Below, in pieces: positions 1 to 7,740 of a stretch of DNA of 7,740 nucleotides. The notes under the pieces are model-generated. The model did no database searches. It was not told the origin of the DNA and was given only the letters and a program-made list of their open reading frames with translations. Each line of letters opens with the position of its first letter. Within the stretch, counting starts at the first letter, position 1. The position numbers and the translations under genes are program-made. This stretch comes from a virus (Duplodnaviria > Heunggongvirae > Uroviricota > Caudoviricetes). The stretch lies in IMG/VR virus record IMGVR_UViG_2671180405_000016. The stretch is one strand, 5' to 3'.

Positions 1-12
1 AGTGTAGCGGTA

Positions 13-1290
13 TTAAGCGCAGCTATTTAGTGAATTAAGTAAATTAGTCAGTGACCTTGTAAAGTCTGTTAAACCTTCCTGTGAACCATCGAACATTAAG
101 GCCAGATTATTATTCCATGAATTACTTAAGCGGCCTAACTGCGTCTGAGTAGAGTTAATAATCTTTTCCCATCCACCAGCTTTATCAATCATCCTTCCCA
201 TTTCAGCGGATACTTTAGGAAGAACATCTTTAGAAAGAATCTTACCGTCTTTCATGGCCTTGTCTAATTCTTCCGTAGTCATCCCAAGACTTCTGGCAAA
301 TAACTGAAAAGCACCTGCCATTCTGTCACCTAATTGACCGCGTAGCTCTTCAGCCTGAATCTTTCCTTTAGATGCCATCTGCTCGAAAGCTTTTAAAATC
401 CCGTTAATTTCATCGGTGCTTAGCCCCATTAATCTGGATGTACCAATCACATTAGAAAATAAGGATTCTTTCTGGTCTGCATTCATATCACCAGCACCAG
501 CGGAAAACTTAGCAAAACTGCTTAATGTTTCAATCTGGTCTACACCACTACTATCAGCAAGATTCTTAACAAATTCTGTAGCTCGTTTAGCACCTTCATC
601 ACCTAAAACGAATTGTGCCGCTCGTTGTGATGCTTCTTTTTTCAGACCAACCTCCATAATCCGCCTGTAAGCTTCTAAGGCTGTCTGAAAACTATAAATG
701 GCTGTACCTGCTTTGATTGCACTCGTAGCTAATACATCCAGACTATTTGAAGCATTTTCACTGTGATTATTTTTGCTGGTGGTCTTGTTAAACTTAGAAA
801 GTGTTTCACGAAGAGACTGATTTAACTTTGCTAACTCACGATTAAAAGTTTCGTTTCCAAGTGTCTTGGATTTACTGCTTAAGCTGTAATACTGGCTTTT
901 AAAATACTTCTCAAGCATAGGATTAAAGTCACGAAGCTTGCTCATATTCGCTGAGTAAGCTGCTGTGATTGCTCTGCTTCCGCTAATTCGTGGCTGTCTT
1001 GGTTGTCTAAGTGGCTTTAAAGTATCCTCAATTTCAGTTTTAATCTTAAACGCTCTAGTGTTTTTAAGACGCTGCTCAATCTTGGAAACAGTTTTATCGA
1101 CATTTCTTTCCATTAGTTTGAGAGAATCATTTAAAGGCGTAGGATTAACTCTAAACGACTTATTCAATCGCTTCTCAATTCGTGATGCTACCTGCATCGT
1201 TTGTTTCTCGGCTTTTTCCAAGCCTTTTAAAACTTTCTGAGAGTTAAAACTTAACTCAATCAGAAAATCATCAACTTTAAATTGTGCCAT
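13..1290 (-). CDS. phage tail tape-measure protein-like (lambda gpH-like), 425 aa, possibly C-terminally truncated
   Basis: Complete ORF with ATG at 1290-1288 and TAA at 15-13; upstream AGAGGTGA Shine-Dalgarno-like motif. The N-terminus (MAQFKVDDFLIELSF) has the pattern of the lambda H N-terminus (MAEPVGDLVVDLSL). The motif EELDKAMKDGKIL resembles lambda H EELNKALKDGKIL, and the C-terminal FDG...FTRSL resembles lambda H FDG...FTRSV. The protein ends where lambda H continues into its hydrophobic C-terminal region. Similarity is recalled from memory, not computed. Confidence 0.6.
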   Translation of the reverse strand: MAQFKVDDFLIELSFNSQKVLKGLEKAEKQTMQVASRIEKRLNKSFRVNPTPLNDSLKLMERNVDKTVSKIEQRLKNTRAFKIKTEIEDTLKPLRQPRQPRISGSRAITAAYSANMSKLRDFNPMLEKYFKSQYYSLSSKSKTLGNETFNRELAKLNQSLRETLSKFNKTTSKNNHSENASNSLDVLATSAIKAGTAIYSFQTALEAYRRIMEVGLKKEASQRAAQFVLGDEGAKRATEFVKNLADSSGVDQIETLSSFAKFSAGAGDMNADQKESLFSNVIGTSRLMGLSTDEINGILKAFEQMASKGKIQAEELRGQLGDRMAGAFQLFARSLGMTTEELDKAMKDGKILSKDVLPKVSAEMGRMIDKAGGWEKIINSTQTQLGRLSNSWNNNLALMFDGSQEGLTDFTRSLTNLLNSLNSCA

Positions 1291-1380
1291 TCATATTTTT
1301 CACCTCTTTAAGCGTGTTGTACGTAAATTCTATTTTTCAGTGTGGGTATTAGCTTTACAGATTTCACGTAGCACACATAC

Positions 1381-1425
1381 AAAAAAAGGGAGAGCTACCG
1401 ATGTCACTCGATAATCTCTCCCCGT
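1381..1425 (-). terminator. rho-independent terminator-like hairpin followed by a T-run on the minus strand
   Basis: GGGAGAG (1388-1394) pairs with CTCTCCC (1417-1423) around a 22-nt loop; on the minus strand the stem is followed by 7 T (plus-strand A-run 1381-1387). It lies between the 69-aa gene and the tape-measure-like gene. The loop is long, so strength is uncertain. Confidence 0.45.
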
Positions 1426-1446
1426 ATTTACCCAACCAATTCTTTT

Positions 1447-1656
1447 TTAATGTCGGACAAGATAATGTAATTCCGTTTCACCTATGATTTGAGCATCAGA
1501 AGGAATACGGTCAATACACCACTTTGGAATCTTGCGTGTTTTTGGTTTGTGTGAGGTGATAACTTGACGTTTGTTTTTAATTCTTAAGGCTGGCTTAGTT
1601 TGTAACTTTAAGTTTTCACAAACAGACCGAATAGTCTCTAAACGTTCTTCAAACAT
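1447..1656 (-). CDS. hypothetical small basic protein (69 aa)
   Basis: ATG at 1656-1654 preceded by TTAAAGAGGTGATTA (the same TTAAAGAGGTGA motif precedes the tape-measure-like gene); TAA stop at 1449-1447. The C-terminal half is rich in K/R. No recognisable family. Confidence 0.5.
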   Translation of the reverse strand: MFEERLETIRSVCENLKLQTKPALRIKNKRQVITSHKPKTRKIPKWCIDRIPSDAQIIGETELHYLVRH

Positions 1657-1678
1657 TAATCACCTCTTTAATTCATAA

Positions 1679-2389
1679 TCAAACAGCCTTGCTATACTTC
1701 TGAGAAATCTTCGTTAACTGCTCAATATCAGCCATCAAAGCAATCTTCTTCTGCGACTCATATTCACTAACAAGTTCTTTCATAGTATCAAGTTCTTTTT
1801 TAAGCTTTTGCTTTAACTTATCCAGTTTACCGGAATAATGCTTAGTCAAATTAGCTTCAGCTAACTGAAGAATCTCTTCATCTGTTTTATCAGTCATCAG
1901 AATAAATTGACCAGAACCCCTTAATGCTTGTCTGACATCAATTAACCGGAACCCTTCAGGGATACTTTGAAGAACTTTAGGAACGTCTTCAATCGCTGTA
2001 CCAAAACCATCATTAAAGTTTCCTTCATAATAGATAAACGGGTTTGACTTAATCTCGTAAGCAATATCATATTCTGAAGGTTTCGAGGTTTCTTCGAAGT
2101 TCTTAACAGCATCGTAAGCGACATCAAGTCTAAGACGCTGTGATTTTAAAGCTGGGTAATATTCACGCTCAAGCTCAAATAGTGCTTCAGTTTTGCAGAT
2201 ATCAGGCATTTCTTGAGGCTCAGGAGACACAAAGGAAATTACCTTTGGTGACATCTTTAGCTCTTGCTCAAGCTCAATGCGCTTGTCATGCTCTTGACGC
2301 TGAATAGTATGTAGCGGATGTTCACCCTGTGGTGACCAGTCTCCGAAGCTATCAACCTTTTTACCGTTAATATATAAATCGTTTGTCAT
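1679..2389 (-). CDS. hypothetical acidic protein (236 aa) with coiled-coil-like C-terminus
   Basis: ATG at 2389-2387 preceded by AGAGGAAATTATA; TGA stop at 1681-1679, 22 nt upstream of the next gene. No recognisable motif; its position upstream of the tape-measure-like gene could suggest a tail-module role, but this is not supported by sequence similarity. Confidence 0.65.
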   Translation of the reverse strand: MTNDLYINGKKVDSFGDWSPQGEHPLHTIQRQEHDKRIELEQELKMSPKVISFVSPEPQEMPDICKTEALFELEREYYPALKSQRLRLDVAYDAVKNFEETSKPSEYDIAYEIKSNPFIYYEGNFNDGFGTAIEDVPKVLQSIPEGFRLIDVRQALRGSGQFILMTDKTDEEILQLAEANLTKHYSGKLDKLKQKLKKELDTMKELVSEYESQKKIALMADIEQLTKISQKYSKAV

Positions 2390-2414
2390 TATAATTTCCT
2401 CTAAGTGTGGTTAT

Positions 2415-2490
2415 TTCTTAATAGAGCACCTTCAACGCCAATACACTTAGAAGATGACTTAACGATTTATTAAAGATGCTCTATTAAGAA
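2415..2490. repeat. 14-bp perfect inverted repeat (TTCTTAATAGAGCA / TGCTCTATTAAGAA) separated by 48 bp
   Basis: Arms at 2415-2428 and 2477-2490 are exact reverse complements; the element sits in the leader region upstream (on the minus strand) of the 236-aa gene and abuts a second hairpin. Confidence 0.5.
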
Positions 2491-2520
2491 AAGCCCTAAA
2501 CATAATCTGTGAAGGGCTTT
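2490..2520 (-). terminator. hairpin AAAGCCCT / AGGGCTTT, weak terminator-like
   Basis: 8-bp perfect stem (2490-2497 with 2513-2520) around a 15-nt loop; on the minus strand it is followed by TTCTTAAT. The loop is long. Confidence 0.3.
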
Positions 2521-2574
2521 GGAGGTTTGCTTATAACGTTAACGAAGTTTCAGGAAAACTTTCTTTAAAAGCTC

Positions 2575-2617
2575 TGTTTAAAAACTCTTAAAGAAAGCCC
2601 TAACTCATGATTAGGGC
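2575..2617 (-). terminator. rho-independent terminator-like hairpin on the minus strand
   Basis: Stem GCCCTAA (2597-2603) / TTAGGGC (2611-2617) with a 7-nt loop; on the minus strand it is followed by TTTCTTTAAGAGTTTTT. Positioned downstream of the 4718-to-2905 gene string. Confidence 0.4.
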
Positions 2618-2904
2618 AAAGCTGTAAAGGATTCAATAATGAATGAACAAAGACTTTTTGAGATAGCCTCTCAGACCAACCTGAAAGGCTAGGACGAAAA
2701 GCATTGCACCTTTCCAACTCAGAATATCCATCCATCGGATTATTGAAAGAAAAAATAAGAGAGAATTGCTCTCCCCCATATATACAATTATGTCATGCTC
2801 AAGGTTGTTTGTCAACAGCTTTTAACAGATTGGTAACATTTATACTTTAATAGATGCACCTGCAATCATACCAATCAATACAAAACAGATAATCACCAAT
2901 TCCA

Positions 2905-3228
2905 TTAATGCACCACCTTCGAATCCGTCACCAGAATATTATCGCTATACAAAATTGCTATAGCCGCCTTGAGATATTTTTCAGGGCTAACGCTGTATTT
3001 GTTCGTTTCTTCGATAATAAGACGCTTCATGTTTGAGTCGGTAACAGGAAACATAAAACGCGGTTCACCAGTTTCAATTTCCTGAATAAAGTCTTCAATT
3101 TCTTCTGAGTTTTCAGCCATTAGCTTTAGTAATTTATCAAGGTCAATTGATACACCGGAATCAGCGAAAGCCTGCACCATCATAGCAGTGTCGCTATCAA
3201 TGAAAATCTGTAATTCATATTCGTTCAT
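2905..3228 (-). CDS. hypothetical protein (107 aa from ATG at 3228; ORF track extends to a TTG at 3261)
   Basis: ATG at 3228-3226 preceded by AAGGAG with a 9-nt spacer; TAA stop at 2907-2905. The upstream TTG extension has no ribosome-binding site and would run into repeat copy 1. No recognisable family. Confidence 0.6.
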   Translation of the reverse strand: MNEYELQIFIDSDTAMMVQAFADSGVSIDLDKLLKLMAENSEEIEDFIQEIETGEPRFMFPVTDSNMKRLIIEETNKYSVSPEKYLKAAIAILYSDNILVTDSKVVH

Positions 3229-3248
3229 TTTTAAAATCTCCTTTTTAC

Positions 3249-3375
3249 CAGACCTCCTCAATCGCTCTGTAACGAGCTAAACAGTCTTTTTCAGGGGTAG
3301 CCTGTACAGTGGTATTACCCACCCTAAAATAAGATAGTTTTTTGCGTTAGAATGCGATTGAGAGCGTCTGATAAG
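3249..3375 (+). repeat. copy 1 of an inverted-repeat-bounded element of about 127 bp (conserved terminal blocks, variable centre)
   Basis: The 5' block CAGACCTCCTCAATCGCTCTGTAACGAGCTAAACAG and 3' block TTTTTTGCGTTAGAATGCGATTGAGAGCGTCTGATAAG are each about 85-90% identical to the corresponding blocks of the copy at 4901-5004. The terminal 16-mers (3250-3265 and 3354-3369) are imperfect reverse complements, giving about 15 bp of pairing with single bulges. Confidence 0.6.
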
Positions 3376-3406
3376 CTGTTTTTCTAATTTCTCTTAAAGT
3401 CTCGGA

Positions 3407-3607
3407 CTACCAATAACCTAATTCCGCTTTATTTCGTTCAAACCATTCCGCTGTAACTGCTGTCTTTAGTGTTACGTTTGGGCTGGTGGCATGAATGAAG
3501 ATATCTTTTGGATTGCAAGCATCACCGAAACCACCTTCTTTGATGAGCAGGTCTGATACATGCTTAATCATTTTATCTGTCAAATATTCGAATTTAATAC
3601 ATAACAT
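3407..3607 (-). CDS. hypothetical protein (66 aa from ATG at 3607; ORF track gives a TTG start at 3640)
   Basis: ATG at 3607-3605 overlaps the upstream gene's stop as TAATG and is preceded by GGAG with a 5-nt spacer; TAG stop at 3409-3407. No recognisable family. Confidence 0.5.
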   Translation of the reverse strand: MLCIKFEYLTDKMIKHVSDLLIKEGGFGDACNPKDIFIHATSPNVTLKTAVTAEWFERNKAELGYW

Positions 3608-3879
3608 TAAATCTCCAGGAGTAAATTGTTTGGGTGGCAATTTCTTTTATTACCATCCCTGAAGATAATCTTTTTAGTTGCCTGAACTTCATGATGCAAA
3701 AACCAGATGACATACTTCAGATAATAATCACGAGTGCCATAACGAATCATTGGATTACCGTAAGCATCATCTCTTGTCTTAACCTCTCCACCATCAATCC
3801 ATTCAAGCATTCCTGTCTCATAATTAATCATGAAGTAAGTTGCAAAGAACCGTTTAATATCATCTCGCCATTGCTTCAT
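3607..3879 (-). CDS. HNH-like (HNH_3-type) small protein, 90 aa, with a degenerate catalytic motif
   Basis: ATG at 3879-3877 preceded by AGGAGG with a 7-nt spacer; TAA at 3609-3607. The C-terminus YVIWFLHHEV...KKIIFRDGNKRNCHPNNLLL resembles the HNH_3 pattern (HRL.W.L.HG....IDHIDGN..NN..NLR), but the IDH position reads IFR, so the usual catalytic His appears absent. Assignment is by eye. Confidence 0.55.
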   Translation of the reverse strand: MKQWRDDIKRFFATYFMINYETGMLEWIDGGEVKTRDDAYGNPMIRYGTRDYYLKYVIWFLHHEVQATKKIIFRDGNKRNCHPNNLLLEI

Positions 3880-3881
3880 AA

Positions 3882-4160
3882 TCAGACCTCCTGAGACAGT
3901 TTGTGAATTTTGATACTTAGTAACCTTGCTAAATCCAGTCCAAAAGCATTTAAGGATTTCAGACTATCAAGGTCATCTTGCTTAATCCTGATATGGTGTC
4001 TTGCAGCCTCTAAGCGACTATTAAGCAAATCCTGTTCGTTAATATCACGGTTAATTGCAAGCTTCATCACTGCTGAGTGTGGCAGACCTGTAATGTTTTT
4101 GATTCGGTTCAGTTCATCAAAGGCTGTCTTTGTAACTCTGGTTAATGTGTGTTTATTCAT
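3882..4160 (-). CDS. hypothetical protein (92 aa), possibly a small DNA-binding regulator
   Basis: ATG at 4160-4158 preceded by GAGGA with an 8-nt spacer and directly abutting the upstream gene's TAA (4163-4161); TGA stop at 3884-3882, 2 nt before the next ATG. The segment TAFDELNRIKNITGLPHSAVMKLAINR is helix-turn-helix-like by eye only. Confidence 0.6.
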   Translation of the reverse strand: MNKHTLTRVTKTAFDELNRIKNITGLPHSAVMKLAINRDINEQDLLNSRLEAARHHIRIKQDDLDSLKSLNAFGLDLARLLSIKIHKLSQEV

Positions 4161-4718
4161 TTAAAAATCCTCTGTAACTAAATAGGGGTCAAACTCGAAA
4201 TCTGGTTGCTCGTTTTCCATTGGCTCAATATTCCCAACGGCAATATGATGTTCAACAATGCCAATTAATTTCGCGCACATCACAGCAAGCAAAGCGCAAT
4301 ATTTATCGCTTGGTAATTCGTAACTAAGTCTGGTTGCCTGTCGCTGAAGATGATTTGTCACGGTGGATGCGTTAATTTCGTCAAGATTCTTTAGCAGATA
4401 AAATAGTTTTTTGTTGTATTTCGGGTGGCCTTCACTTCTACAGAACCCAATAAAAACATCATCAAGCTTGCTTGGTAACTGCTCGTAACTGTCAAAGTTA
4501 GCCAGATAATTTTTAATAGTATTCTTTGTTGTTTTGCGTACTGGCATAAATCTGTCTCGTGGCGTAATGCTACGAATGACCGCTTCAATGTTCTTACGTT
4601 CGGATTTGCTAAAGGTTGGGACTTCGTAGCTGGTGGGGTTGTTTGTGTAAGCGTAGGAGTTGTGCTTGTTGCGTTCTCTTGATGCCTGAAGCATCGCTCT
4701 AAATTCTGAATACTGCAT
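4161..4718 (-). CDS. hypothetical protein (185 aa), first gene of the minus-strand operon
   Basis: ATG at 4718-4716 about 45 nt downstream of the predicted minus-strand promoter. A 5-codon upstream mini-ORF (ATG AGA GTC AGA ACA TGA) ends immediately before this ATG; the conventional Shine-Dalgarno sequence is weak. No recognisable family. Confidence 0.6.
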   Translation of the reverse strand: MQYSEFRAMLQASRERNKHNSYAYTNNPTSYEVPTFSKSERKNIEAVIRSITPRDRFMPVRKTTKNTIKNYLANFDSYEQLPSKLDDVFIGFCRSEGHPKYNKKLFYLLKNLDEINASTVTNHLQRQATRLSYELPSDKYCALLAVMCAKLIGIVEHHIAVGNIEPMENEQPDFEFDPYLVTEDF

Positions 4719-4769
4719 TCATGTTCTGACTCTCATAAGATGTTATTATTCTGTTAACCTATATATACA

Positions 4770-4798
4770 ATATTAGCATTTTCAAAGACTAATGTCAA
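4770..4798 (-). promoter_or_regulatory. sigma70-type promoter for the minus-strand operon
   Basis: On the minus strand: -35 TTGACA (plus 4793-4798), 17-bp spacer, -10 TAATAT (plus 4770-4775). Confidence 0.5.
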
Positions 4799-4804
4799 GT
4801 ATTT

Positions 4805-4834
4805 TTAACATTTTCGTAACATCTGTGGTATAAT
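4805..4834 (+). promoter_or_regulatory. sigma70-type promoter with extended -10, rightward
   Basis: -35 TTAACA (4805-4810), 18-bp spacer, TGg-TATAAT extended -10 (TG at 4826-4827, TATAAT at 4829-4834). It sits back-to-back with the leftward promoter, with 6 bp between the two -35 hexamers. Confidence 0.55.
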
Positions 4835-4856
4835 GGGTTTATGGGGAGAGTAAAAT

Positions 4857-5189
4857 ATGAGGCGTGGCTATGTATTTGGTCGCATATTTTGCATTGCACA
4901 CAGACCTCTTCAATCGCCCTGTAACGAGTTAAACGACCTCTTCAGGTCAACTCATAAGGTCAGGTACTTTTTGTGTCAGAATGCGATTGAGAGCGTCTTA
5001 CAAGGAAAACTAATGGTAAATCTCCCTCCTGAGCTGGGGTCACCTGATGTATGGACTGGTGGAGGTATTGGGCTGATTGCAGGCCTGCTACTTCGCTACG
5101 TCCTCGTCAGAGTGCTTGTTGTCTTTAAACTGTTCGGTCGTACATGGACGCTTGACCTTAAGGATAACGACCACACAGACCCCCGTTAA
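4857..5189 (+). CDS. hypothetical protein; the C-terminal 58 aa (alternative start ATG at 5013) form a small predicted single-pass membrane protein
   Basis: ATG at 4857 preceded by GGGGAGAG; TAA at 5187-5189. An in-frame ATG at 5013 has its own AAGGA ribosome-binding site (6-nt spacer) and gives MVNLPPELGSPDVWTGGGIGLIAGLLLRYVLVRVLVVFKLFGRTWTLDLKDNDHTDPR, with a hydrophobic stretch GGGIGLIAGLLLRYVLVRVLVVF. The 5' part of the long ORF overlaps repeat copy 2, so which start is used is unresolved. Confidence 0.4.
   Translation: MRRGYVFGRIFCIAHRPLQSPCNELNDLFRSTHKVRYFLCQNAIESVLQGKLMVNLPPELGSPDVWTGGGIGLIAGLLLRYVLVRVLVVFKLFGRTWTLDLKDNDHTDPR
4901..5004 (+). repeat. copy 2 of the inverted-repeat-bounded element (about 104 bp; shorter variable centre)
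   Basis: 5' block CAGACCTCTTCAATCGCCCTGTAACGAGTTAAACGACCTCTTCAGG and 3' block TTTTTGTGTCAGAATGCGATTGAGAGCGTCTTACAAG. The terminal 16-mers (4902-4917 and 4983-4998) pair as 4 + 4 + 7 bp with two single-nucleotide bulges. Same orientation as copy 1. Confidence 0.6.
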
Positions 5190-5201
5190 ACTCCTTCAAA
5201 A

Positions 5202-5242
5202 CCCCTGCACGAGATGACAGATAGAAGTCTATGGTACAGGGG
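5202..5242 (+). terminator. weak terminator-like hairpin downstream of the small membrane-protein ORF
   Basis: CCCCTG (5202-5207) pairs with CAGGGG (5237-5242) around a 29-nt loop, followed by TGTCTTTAGCATTTTGTG. The loop is too long for a strong call. Confidence 0.2.
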
Positions 5243-5324
5243 TGTCTTTAGCATTTTGTGCTATCTATTAAAAAATAGCTTGACAGAACCGGAAAGCTGT
5301 ATCTATCAAGCATTCACCTCTCTG

Positions 5325-5514
5325 ACAGTAATTTCTAAAAGTTCTTATTTTTCAATAAGTTGTAATTAGCCATATATAGAGAACTGACAAGTCTCTTCAC
5401 AGACAACTCTGCAACCTTAACAGTAACTTCTAAAAATGCTTATTTTTCAACGAGTTGTAATCACCCAATATATAAGGCTGTCCAGTACCTTCACAGATAA
5501 CTTCAAGCCCTCTT
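5325..5514 (+). repeat. tandem direct repeat, two copies of a 95-bp unit
   Basis: Unit 1 starts at 5325 (ACAGTAATTTCTAAAAGTTCTTATTTTTCAATAAGTTGTAAT...) and unit 2 at 5420 (ACAGTAACTTCTAAAAATGCTTATTTTTCAACGAGTTGTAAT...). The first 42 nt match at 37 positions, and homology continues through ...CTTCACAGA(C/T)AACT... to the unit end. Confidence 0.55.
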
Positions 5515-6243
5515 AACCGCCCCACTAATCGGGAGAAGAGCGATAACCCCAGAGAGGGAAGCTCCTTTCTTAACCGACCTCTTAAACGACCTTTACAGAC
5601 CTTGTTCAAGGTAATCACAATAGTTTTTCTTCCCTCGGTTTCCTGTGTTCCTCGGCTGGCTATTGAGATTTGAAAGACCTCTGTAAGCGCTCTCTTAGCG
5701 AGAGAAAAATCATTCATAGTGACCCCAAGCGAAGCGCCCCTCTAAAAAAAGATTTTTTAGCTATTTTGTTTAAAAGCATATCAAACGATACATTTTATTG
5801 ATTTAGGTCAAAGACAAAAGCATTGACAAAATGGTAAGATTGTTCACATGACCTTACTTATTTAAGAGACTTTGAAACAGCCTGTTTAACAGGTCACTAC
5901 CTCTGGTCTTATCGTTCCCTTCTTTCTAGGTGGTTATCTGTTAAGAGTTTTTCAGTTTTTATTCTTAAGATAATTGTTAAGATGATACTCTCCCTTCGGG
6001 TTATATCGTATCTCTTCTCCCGTTAAATATCCCTTCACAGTCAGACTAAATAACACCTGTGTAGTTCTTGGTAGAATCTTTCAAGGTAACTTAGCTCTGA
6101 GTTTATGAAGTTGACCTATGAGATAGACTCTACCGAATCTGTTAGTCAATTGTTGCTTAGGTGCTGCTAAGTGAAGTGGCACACTGAATTTGGCCACCTG
6201 AACAGAGGTGATATGCTCACCTCAGAACAACACAGGTGCTCCA

Positions 6244-7412
<1,169 letters not shown>

Positions 7413-7420
7413 CCACTTCA

Positions 7421-7711
7421 GGCGACTTATCAGTGGAAAAACACAGAACGATCAGGATATATGCGCCCTGGCAAAAGAGTATGAGATCGCCATGCTGTTG
7501 GTGACTAAAGGTGCAGAAGGGGTGGTGGTCTGTTATCGAGGACAAGTTCACCATTTTGCTGGAATGTCTGTGAATTGTGTCGATAGCACGGGGGCGGGAG
7601 ATGCGTTCGTTGCCGGGTTACTCACAGGTCTGTCCTCTACGGGATTATCTACAGATGAGAGAGAAATGCGACGAATTATCGATCTCGCTCAACGTTGCGG
7701 AGCGCTTGCAG
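7421..7711 (+). pseudogene. internal fragment of a pfkB-family carbohydrate kinase gene (fructokinase-like), truncated at both ends by IS elements
   Basis: The frame encodes ...ICALAKEYEIAMLLVTKGAEGVVVCYRGQVHHFAGMSVNCVDSTGAGDAFVAGLLTGL...AQRCGALA. DSTGAGDAFVAGLL matches the C-terminal pfkB/ribokinase-family signature (D-[ST]-x-GAGD). The coding frame is cut by the IS911 right end at 7420/7421 and runs into the IS1 end at 7712; about two thirds of a typical 300-aa kinase is missing. The ORF-track entry 7342-7716 is a chimera of IS911 sequence, this fragment and IS1. Confidence 0.7.
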
Positions 7712-7740
7712 GGTGATGCTGCCAACTTACTGATTTAGTG
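7712..7740 (+). mobile_element. IS1 terminal inverted repeat (left end), element continues beyond the window
   Basis: GGTGATGCTGCCAACTTACTGATTTAGTG matches the IS1 terminal sequence (GGTGATGCTGCCAACTTACTGAT...) as recalled. Only 29 bp are in the window; the boundary is uncertain by 1 bp because of the GGG run at 7711-7713. Confidence 0.75.

Follow-up and report, generated by a model that had tools for sequence, protein, structure and literature searches.

A non-coding region of an Escherichia integrative island shares homology with the terminal repeats of Felixounavirus phages and may be a site of satellite-helper interaction

Background

Satellite P4 of phage P2 and the cos-type phage-inducible chromosomal islands (PICIs) carry a copy of their helper's packaging signal, and through it the helper terminase packages the satellite. 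P4 and the PICIs have temperate helpers of the cos or pac type, and their mimic is compact and near-identical to the original. The phage-inducible chromosomal island-like element (PLE) of Vibrio cholerae, which encodes its own RepA with iterons, is to our knowledge, and in our literature searches, the only one of the well-studied satellite families that parasitises a virulent phage. Here we analyze a stretch poor in open reading frames (ORFs) at positions 5190-6171 of a 7,740-nucleotide DNA catalogued as a Caudoviricetes virus (IMG/VR record IMGVR_UViG_2671180405_000016; hereafter, the window), which belongs to an integrative island of ~11.5 kb that usually lies in yecE and splits that gene into two fragments. 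A first-pass annotation made from the letters alone had drawn attention to this stretch for its tandem repeat and palindromes, and had offered an origin of replication, an attachment site or a small-RNA locus as readings. We put at roughly 0.55 the probability that the island is a satellite, or a satellite-like defence element, of Felixounavirus, and that the stretch is where helper and island proteins would act on its DNA.

PLE is likewise a chromosomal island of small size that carries a large serine recombinase and is associated with a single lineage of virulent myoviruses (ICP1), and it has a sizeable non-coding region with cis-acting sites as well as variable cargo. The two differ in that no sequence or protein-family relation links them (PADLOC, Pfam, NCBIfam) and in that neither a RepA nor iterons were found in the island. 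Homologues of a tape measure protein (TMP) and a distal tail protein (Dit), together with copies of helper terminal-repeat sequence, are features of the island that are not known to us from PLE. The likeness to P4 and to the cos/pac mimics of PICIs is one of idea, the island carrying copies of terminal-repeat DNA of its helper. Here the helper is of the exact direct terminal repeat (DTR) type, the island copies are 60-87% identical to the phage, split, permuted and devoid of a right boundary, and no defining P4 or PICI gene is present. By analogy, PLE and ICP1 may be closest in behavior and cos/pac mimicry closest as a concept; membership in the PLE, P4 or PICI families is excluded by gene content.

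The island has probably been encountered before. Virulent phage vB_EcoM_DE7 contains a 544-bp locus, within a gene annotated by RAST as TMP, that is homologous to the chromosomes of two E. coli strains, with no prophage called there by PHASTER (BMC Microbiol 2024; PMC11069274). That chromosomal locus is probably the same island. The study treats the homology as lateral transfer between phage and "prophage", and contains no account of an island, of its non-coding region or of homology to terminal repeats. Our literature search found no published description of a Felixounavirus satellite.

Results and discussion

Homology to the terminal repeats of Ounavirinae

When 5190-6170 was compared with 50,697 phage records by blastn in sensitive mode, 145 records matched, 144 of them Ounavirinae-type by organism name and the odd one a Staphylococcus phage. 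Among the 30 records listed, the matches fall inside window 5870-6140, and in phage records that start at the physical ends they lie ~250-335 nt from the end. Megablast of the whole left 6.2 kb against phages returned nothing, and the Ounavirinae matches were seen in the sensitive mode only. A profile built from 10 islands (nhmmer) extended the similarity to a colinear match of 5832-6080, a quarter of the stretch, to the DTR, with E = 2.6e-8 for Citrobacter phage HP1 and 1.4e-6 for ECP2307. The block is colinear with DTR positions 227-475 in FelixO1, UAB_Phi87, ECP2307 and HP1, including a GGTCAC...TCTTATCGTTCCCT stem-loop. ECP2307 has an exact 592-bp repeat at both genome ends, and the annotated 570-bp repeat of HP1 has the same boundaries (left ...ATCTGCTT/GGTAGCCC, right ...TGTTAAGGGGGC/, the slash marking the boundary); the DTR of UAB_Phi87 was determined experimentally as 608 bp (PMC4837284).

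The island block differs from the phage DTR in being single and internal, not terminal, and in the absence of a dense, strand-specific TAACAR array. Three 1-kb bins at the ends of ECP2307 hold 45 sites of this array, whereas the whole genome averages 1.2 per kb; TAACAR is not enriched in the island, with 5 sites, on both strands, in 981 bp. Positions 86200-87442 plus 1-1050 of ECP2307 hold a ~1.7-kb gene-free terminal region between convergent gene blocks, with four to five tandem copies of the 12-bp CCTTCTAACAAG and three TGTTAAG at the right DTR edge. The CCTTCTAACAAG array is resembled by a 12-13-bp array in the island spacer (5568-5592), which has 2-5 copies in relatives.

In the core of the block, GGTCAC is followed by a stem-loop whose pyrimidine loop, 23-30 nt long, contains TCTTATCGTTCCCT (Table 1). 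A stem of 6-8 bp is present in 9/9 islands; 12 of 13 phages have one of 8 bp and the thirteenth (L103) one of 5 bp, in a register shifted by two nucleotides relative to the islands. One base pair forms a compensatory series, being T-A in L002 (ACTACCT/AGGTAGT), T.G in the window (ACTACCT/AGGTGGT) and C-G in the intact island L001 (ACCACCT/AGGTGGT). The core stem-loop folds better than shuffled sequence (z = -2.9), and in the window it is lengthened by an outer stem, TTAACAGGT / ATCTGTTAA. The 13-bp palindrome CCTGTTTAACAGG that the first-pass annotation had singled out at 5881-5893 is exact, and overlaps a second one, AAACAGCCTGTTT, at 5875-5887, but neither its occurrence nor its conservation sets it apart. 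Perfect palindromes with arms of at least 6 number 2 against 5.1 expected from shuffles of 1-6170, and CCTGTTTAACAGG occurs only in the window, L001 and L002, where it is the 5' flank of the longer conserved hairpin in one sub-lineage.

In the window the non-coding region is cut by an IS3-family insertion sequence (IS), which we take from its sequence to be IS911, with 6171 as its left end. Intact islands have further phage-like blocks beyond this point. One (L001:16672-16774; also in L006, L137, L138 and L141:1649-1818) is homologous to the left boundary of the DTR, including the sequence context of the cut site; it reads ...CCCGTTT/AGTAGCCC in the island against ...ATCTGCTT/GGTAGCCC in the phage and is the phage-like non-coding block kept most widely among island variants. 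Another, at L001:16375-16590, combines an RNA-like, G-rich unit of ~150 nt that contains GGT repeats with a consensus promoter (TTGACG-17-TATAAT) and an intrinsic terminator; it is 71-81% identical to four intergenic copies in ECP2307 (41944-42159, 43336-43558). The G-rich unit matches no Rfam family and is a candidate small RNA (sRNA) family common to phage and island. The three non-coding homologies are confined to Ounavirinae.

Constraint on island-specific blocks

The best conserved DNA of the island lies beside the DTR-like block, in segments that we call blocks A and B and in the first of the two 95-bp tandem units (Table 1). With the third codon positions of the adjacent small ORF as reference (nucleotide diversity pi = 0.136), blocks A, unit 1 and B evolve 3-5 times slower, which indicates purifying selection at the DNA level on 5240-5419 and 5724-5870. 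Block A keeps 94-99% identity in islands that differ more in the adjacent 185-aa gene (84-96% identity), block B is 92-99% identical in nine Escherichia copies, and in islands with both blocks at 92-99% a 92-aa gene can be as low as 66% identical; the blocks are better conserved than the adjacent genes. The architecture is kept in E. coli and E. albertii islands whose genes differ by up to 30%. In Citrobacter island L006 blocks A and B no longer align, and most blocks of the architecture are still recognisable. Block B contains CTAAAAAAAGATTTTTTAG (5742-5760), TTGACA (5824-5829) and TGGTAAGAT (5832-5840); the first of these, an A/T tract already reported at exactly that position, is kept with two A fewer by all Escherichia copies. 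Neither the tandem repeat nor the surrounding island-specific blocks have a homologue among the 50,697 phage records (blastn), and 5190-5870 has none in the plasmid collection.

The 95-bp tandem repeat at 5325-5514 is real and far above chance. Tandem Repeats Finder reports 5325-5502 with period 95, 1.9 copies, 81% matches and a score of 240, and the units share 77 identities over 99 aligned columns. It recurs in related genomes as one to two units: nine of 11 island copies have both, L008 has a single fused unit and Citrobacter L006 about one. The duplication itself is probably incidental. Motifs of the 95-bp unit such as GTTGTAAT and CTTCACAG are not enriched in phage ECP2307. Degenerate further copies, proposed at about 5574-5611 and 5661-5700, are marginal; their local alignment score of 15 compares with 9.6 +/- 1.7 in shuffles, is reached by 4 of 300 shuffles, and depends on a ~17-nt motif, TTAAACGACCTCTTCAG.

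The description of 5190-6170 as ~980 bp with no convincing ORF also holds in relatives, and the first-pass coordinates of all features are exact. ORFs of 34-95 aa exist in 5190-6171; none is conserved, and in the closest relatives they are broken by stops or frameshifting indels whose lengths are not multiples of three. Comparison with relatives revealed no frame-consistent ORF remnants. A protein-coding gene or pseudogene at 5190-6170 was rejected on these grounds, in contrast to the flanking 58-aa ORF. The latter is a genuine gene because its diversity at codon positions 1/2/3 is 0.062/0.018/0.136 (nine Escherichia copies) and its indels, in L006 and L009, are in frame; it has no Pfam or PHROG match. 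The ORF-free stretch is longer in intact islands; in L001 it extends for ~2.2 kb past the small ORF (L001:15341-17530), and 5190-6170 corresponds to the left ~1 kb of a ~2.6-kb non-coding region of intact islands.

No known RNA family or structured RNA is indicated for the stretch, and only the DTR-like hairpin shows structure. Within the window Rfam 15 returned nothing at E <= 1, and the matches that it gave elsewhere in L001 were to microRNAs or sRNAs and no better than chance. The 95-bp units fold no better than shuffles (z = -0.04 for unit 1, +0.84 for unit 2), and the whole stretch only marginally better (z = -1.55 on the plus strand, -2.42 on the minus strand). A small RNA encoded by the repeats, one of the readings first offered, finds no support in these results, and a promoter-terminator pair is absent as well; the sRNA-like unit that does exist in intact islands lies past the IS911 cut. 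Because Rfam gave no match and the repeats no fold signal, we infer that the region acts as DNA rather than as RNA.

The island and its link to a helper lineage

The island encodes, in order, a serine recombinase of 507 aa (Resolvase and Recombinase domains), a "baseplate" protein of 257 aa that Pfam assigns to Dit_like, and a TMP of 688-711 aa, followed by six to eight small genes, ~2.6 kb of unannotated DNA and variable cargo. From its ~11 ORFs, Pfam, PHROGs, NCBIfam and PADLOC recognise only the TMP, the Dit-like protein, an HNH protein and the recombinase; with the same resources no capsid, portal, terminase, polymerase, primase or replication gene was recognised. The non-coding stretch occurs in 433-484 of 5426 complete E. 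coli genomes (8-9%) at 84-96% identity, mostly unannotated, always chromosomal and in up to four places per genome, and relatives are found in E. albertii, Citrobacter and Salmonella. A 14-mer scan of IMG/VR gave mostly chance matches, of which profile filtering left twelve true homologues. The non-coding region has a hot spot for cargo in its right part (L003:11577-12101, L004:11007-11669, L001:17531-18451, L137:708-1256), where an AP2/HNH-type gene, a Dam methyltransferase, a 306-aa protein or a small resolvase is found, depending on the island. In L004 a Dam methyltransferase gene stands in place of window 5687-5725.

Comparison with K-12 yecE mapped attL and attR to a 7-nt core, TGATTTT, from which attP was reconstructed as ...TAGACCTTGA TGATTTT TATTAGACAC..., with inverted arms of its own and the predicted junction TAGACCTTGATGATTTTTATTAGACAC. 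In L001 attR lies more than 2 kb to the right of the stretch; in the window that end was removed by IS911. The attP junction was met once in public metagenome contigs, at 2943-2969 of L141 (ERZ1090866 NODE-760; 11,473 bp), and has no match in IMG/VR. Judged by its sequence, L141 is an excised or concatemeric island, and because the junction lies in a contig with no chromosomal flank, the island appears to excise in nature. Positions 1-120 of L141 hold four tandem copies of the palindromic 14-15-bp GTGACATTTTGTCAC, and the contig ends in a Nextera adapter and is not closed. Two island-length metagenome scaffolds, L137 and L138, were rejected as excised forms; they carry yecE or other flanks and are integrated.

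The best phage matches of the island TMP are the TMPs of Felixounavirus, a group of virulent FelixO1-like myoviruses within the Ounavirinae (32% identity, E 1e-57). Against ECP2307, its N-terminal part is 31% identical and its last 17 aa 70% identical, and the Dit-like protein is 70.6% identical to the product of the gene directly downstream of the phage TMP; the island pair (L001:8575-11644) is syntenic with the Felixounavirus pair, and no other island protein matches ECP2307. This arrangement suggests that the island may swap or poison tail components of its helper. The TMP region of the window is only 67-72% nucleotide-identical to L001, and therefore the islands are mosaic. Taken as a candidate satellite, the island has an integrase and att sites, no autonomous virion or replication genes, and a molecular link to a helper lineage.

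A proposed satellite of Felixounavirus and the case against it

During helper infection, the helper terminase, replisome or both would act on island DNA via the terminal-repeat-like blocks, and DNA-binding proteins of island or host would act via blocks A, B and the first 95-bp unit. The island would then either be replicated and packaged or compete with the phage for the same machinery. Among the small island proteins, ribbon-helix-helix (RHH)-like and helix-turn-helix (HTH)-like similarities suggest possible binders of the conserved non-coding DNA. Sub-threshold matches to DndE, which is RHH-like, occur in two orthologues, a 92-aa protein of the window (3882-4160) and a 93-aa protein at L001:14032-14313, and there is a weak C-terminal HTH match in the 128-aa protein at L001:13646-14032. 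More tentatively, the islands could form a new satellite family living on virulent exact-DTR myoviruses of E. coli, Shigella, Citrobacter and Salmonella, replicated and packaged through split, diverged copies of the DTR signal, with the helper tail re-tooled by the island TMP and Dit and with 5240-5419 and 5724-5870 as their own origin or switch; we regard this fuller version as possible, with the odds somewhat against it.

Several observations weigh against a satellite of this kind. We found no experiment or published description of phage-driven induction, replication or packaging of the island, and its 11.5-kb genome contrasts with an 88-kb helper capsid. The most constrained blocks are the ones with no phage homologue, the DTR-like block is itself fast-evolving (pi 0.2-0.3), and recombinational spread of the module may partly explain the low diversity elsewhere. 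Relative to the phage, the order of the helper-like blocks is permuted, with the DTR-internal block upstream of the left-boundary homologue, and 12 islands yielded no homologue of the right DTR boundary; because of this order and the missing boundary, a simple "surrogate concatemer junction" does not fit. In the literature we found no published function for DTR positions 227-475 in the phage, and no account of Ounavirinae DTR function, the mid-repeat stem-loop or the left cut-site context. L141, the contig with the excision junction, is not closed, and in this divergent variant no window-type stretch was detected.

If the island is a satellite of Felixounavirus, about 1 in 11 sequenced E. coli, and all Shigella sonnei as a relic, carry a parasite of FelixO1-like phages. 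These phages see wide use in typing, biocontrol and therapy, and the island could make them less effective or mobilise host DNA. The stretch also points to the parts of the Ounavirinae DTR that would matter, namely the mid-repeat stem-loop and the left cut-site context, and offers concrete candidate sites for the hijack of a DTR-type terminase or replisome.

Alternative explanations

A transcriptional control region is the alternative that survives best, and we regard it as rather unlikely. Promoters, operators and short transcripts would here sense helper infection and switch island operons on, and the DTR-like block would be a promoter or terminator shared with the phage. Promoter-like sites are enriched in 4600-6300 (8 against 3.5 +/- 1.6), six of the eight on the plus strand. 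Each 95-bp unit has one such site and the DTR-like core has another (TTAACA-18-TATCGT), motifs resembling an extended -10 (TGnTAAGAT) occur repeatedly in both the phage and the island, neighboring small proteins look DNA-binding (the DndE/RHH-like and HTH matches above), and a promoter-RNA-terminator unit shared with the phage lies just past the IS911 cut. All 13 phages examined have the -35/-10 pair of the core, with TATAGT in HP1 and TATCGT in the other 12, as have 5 of 9 islands, but the -10 is lost in four (CTTCGT in L004, L005, L006 and L009), whereas the stem is kept in all. In the phage, moreover, the homologous DNA sits at the genome ends, flanked by convergent gene blocks, and not upstream of genes, and no terminator-like sites follow the putative promoters of the stretch. 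The near-consensus TTGACA noted at 5280-5285 is exactly placed and conserved, but it has no usable -10 and was not called by the promoter scan; 16-18 nt downstream there is only CTATCA or TATCAA.

A classical iteron-type origin, with the 95-bp units as iterons for an island initiator and the AT-rich block B as the unwinding element, is improbable. Direct repeats do lie near a strongly conserved block of ~75% A+T, their 95-bp spacing would be about nine helical turns, the adjacent 185-aa and 236-aa proteins have no assigned function, and the variant L141 begins with its four tandem palindromes. There are only two repeats, however; unit 2 evolves at ~5 times the rate of unit 1, and in one island only one unit is present. 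Short iterons are absent (a single 8-mer occurs at least three times), DnaA boxes show no enrichment, numbering 15 where 20.8 would be expected, and no Rep, primase or helicase family was detected in island proteins. The lack of a homologue in the plasmid collection also speaks against an iteron origin, as does the 185-aa protein, an orphan with an uninformative structure model (pLDDT 46). The origin first suggested for this stretch is plausible in the broad sense of origin-like cis-acting DNA, but the classical iteron hallmarks were tested and not found.

That the stretch is a functionless remnant, made of decayed genes or junk carried along with a degraded prophage, is very improbable. The window copy is decaying (IS911 cut, private indels), and the DTR-like block and spacer evolve fast. 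Against this stand the slow evolution of blocks A, unit 1 and B relative to neighboring third codon positions, the same architecture in diverged E. coli and E. albertii islands, and the want of ORF remnants. The idea is largely refuted for the family and possible for this truncated copy.

The attachment or recombination region raised by the first-pass annotation, an attP-like site for the serine recombinase of the island or for another recombinase, has next to no chance of being correct, since for all the inverted repeats and palindromes of the region attL, attR and the reconstructed attP fall at the island ends, outside 5190-6171, and the palindrome is not conserved; an attP of the island's own integrase within this internal stretch was rejected from the mapped junctions.

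Features and state of the window copy

Table 1. Coordinates of the features described in the window
Feature	Position	Strand	Remarks
TMP, N-terminal part (PF20155)	13-1290	-	Pfam/PHROG annotation of window proteins
Divergent consensus promoters	4770-4834	both	leftward operon promoter 4798-4770; promoter scan
Sigma-70 promoter TTAACA-18-TATAAT with TG	4805-4834	+	11/12 matches; reads into 58-aa ORF
Repeat element, copy B	4901-5004		inverted-repeat ends CAGACCTCTTCAATCGC / GCGATTGAGAGCGTCT; between promoter and small ORF
58-aa ORF	5013-5189	+	one hydrophobic segment; usually unannotated
Terminator-like GC-rich hairpin with T-rich tail	5201-5262	+	ends small-ORF transcript; fold z = -2.3 (-3.1 in L001)
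Block A	5240-5324		island-specific; TTGACA (5280-5285) and short inverted repeats; pi 0.051
95-bp tandem unit 1	5325-5419		pi 0.025; most constrained segment of region
95-bp tandem unit 2	5420-5514		fast-evolving duplicate; pi 0.129
Spacer	5515-5723		variable, indel-rich; pi 0.213; cargo insertion site
Block B	5724-5870		GC clamp, then ~75% A+T; pi 0.050
DTR-homologous block	5832-6080	+	positions 227-475 of the 592-bp DTR, Felixounavirus / Mooglevirus genomes
Core stem-loop	5896-5934	+	ACTACCT (5896-5902), 25-nt pyrimidine loop with TCTTATCGTTCCCT, AGGTGGT (5928-5934)
IS3-family element cutting the non-coding region	6171-7420	+	orfA/orfB in ORF list

The window is an IS-eroded copy of the island from S. 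sonnei, as judged from its 185-aa protein, which over 1000 S. sonnei contigs encode in identical form, and it is a relic. Homology to L001 ends exactly at window 6171 (L001:16312), and ~1.2 kb of the non-coding region together with the right end of the island is gone. Beyond the IS lies what we take, from its ORF translation, to be a C-terminal fragment of a PfkB/fructokinase-like gene (7342-7716), and the window ends presumably in the first ~30 nt of an IS1 inverted repeat; IS911, the fructokinase fragment and the IS1 end are typical of IS-driven erosion in Shigella. Changes private to this copy comprise a 17-nt insertion, which falls in the loop of the 5201-5262 hairpin, a 7-nt deletion and two extra A. 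Because of the IS911 cut and these private indels, the window copy is probably no longer functional. The 185-aa protein has 1090 close matches, all "hypothetical" and falling into only 19 cluster representatives, which marks it as an orphan; it has no relative in PDB, and its AlphaFold model is uninformative.

To the left, every ORF in window 13-4718 is on the minus strand, and besides the TMP these encode an HNH-like 90-aa protein and six small or unknown proteins. The -10 region of the rightward promoter at 4805-4834 is unchanged across 11 island copies. The repeat element downstream of it (copy B) is a clean presence/absence indel, missing from L003, L006, L007 and L008. Copy A lies at 3249-3375, and the element measures ~105-125 bp with 17-nt inverted ends. 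It is confined to these islands (220 genomes, 1-3 copies per genome) and could represent a miniature mobile element or a hairpin element particular to this family of islands. Within the leftward operon there is a second ORF-poor stretch of ~500 bp (2390-2905), which contains a 13-bp tandem repeat (2555-2588), a repeated AAGCCCTAA motif and a 22-nt inverted repeat with 91% identity (2414-2435 / 2470-2491).

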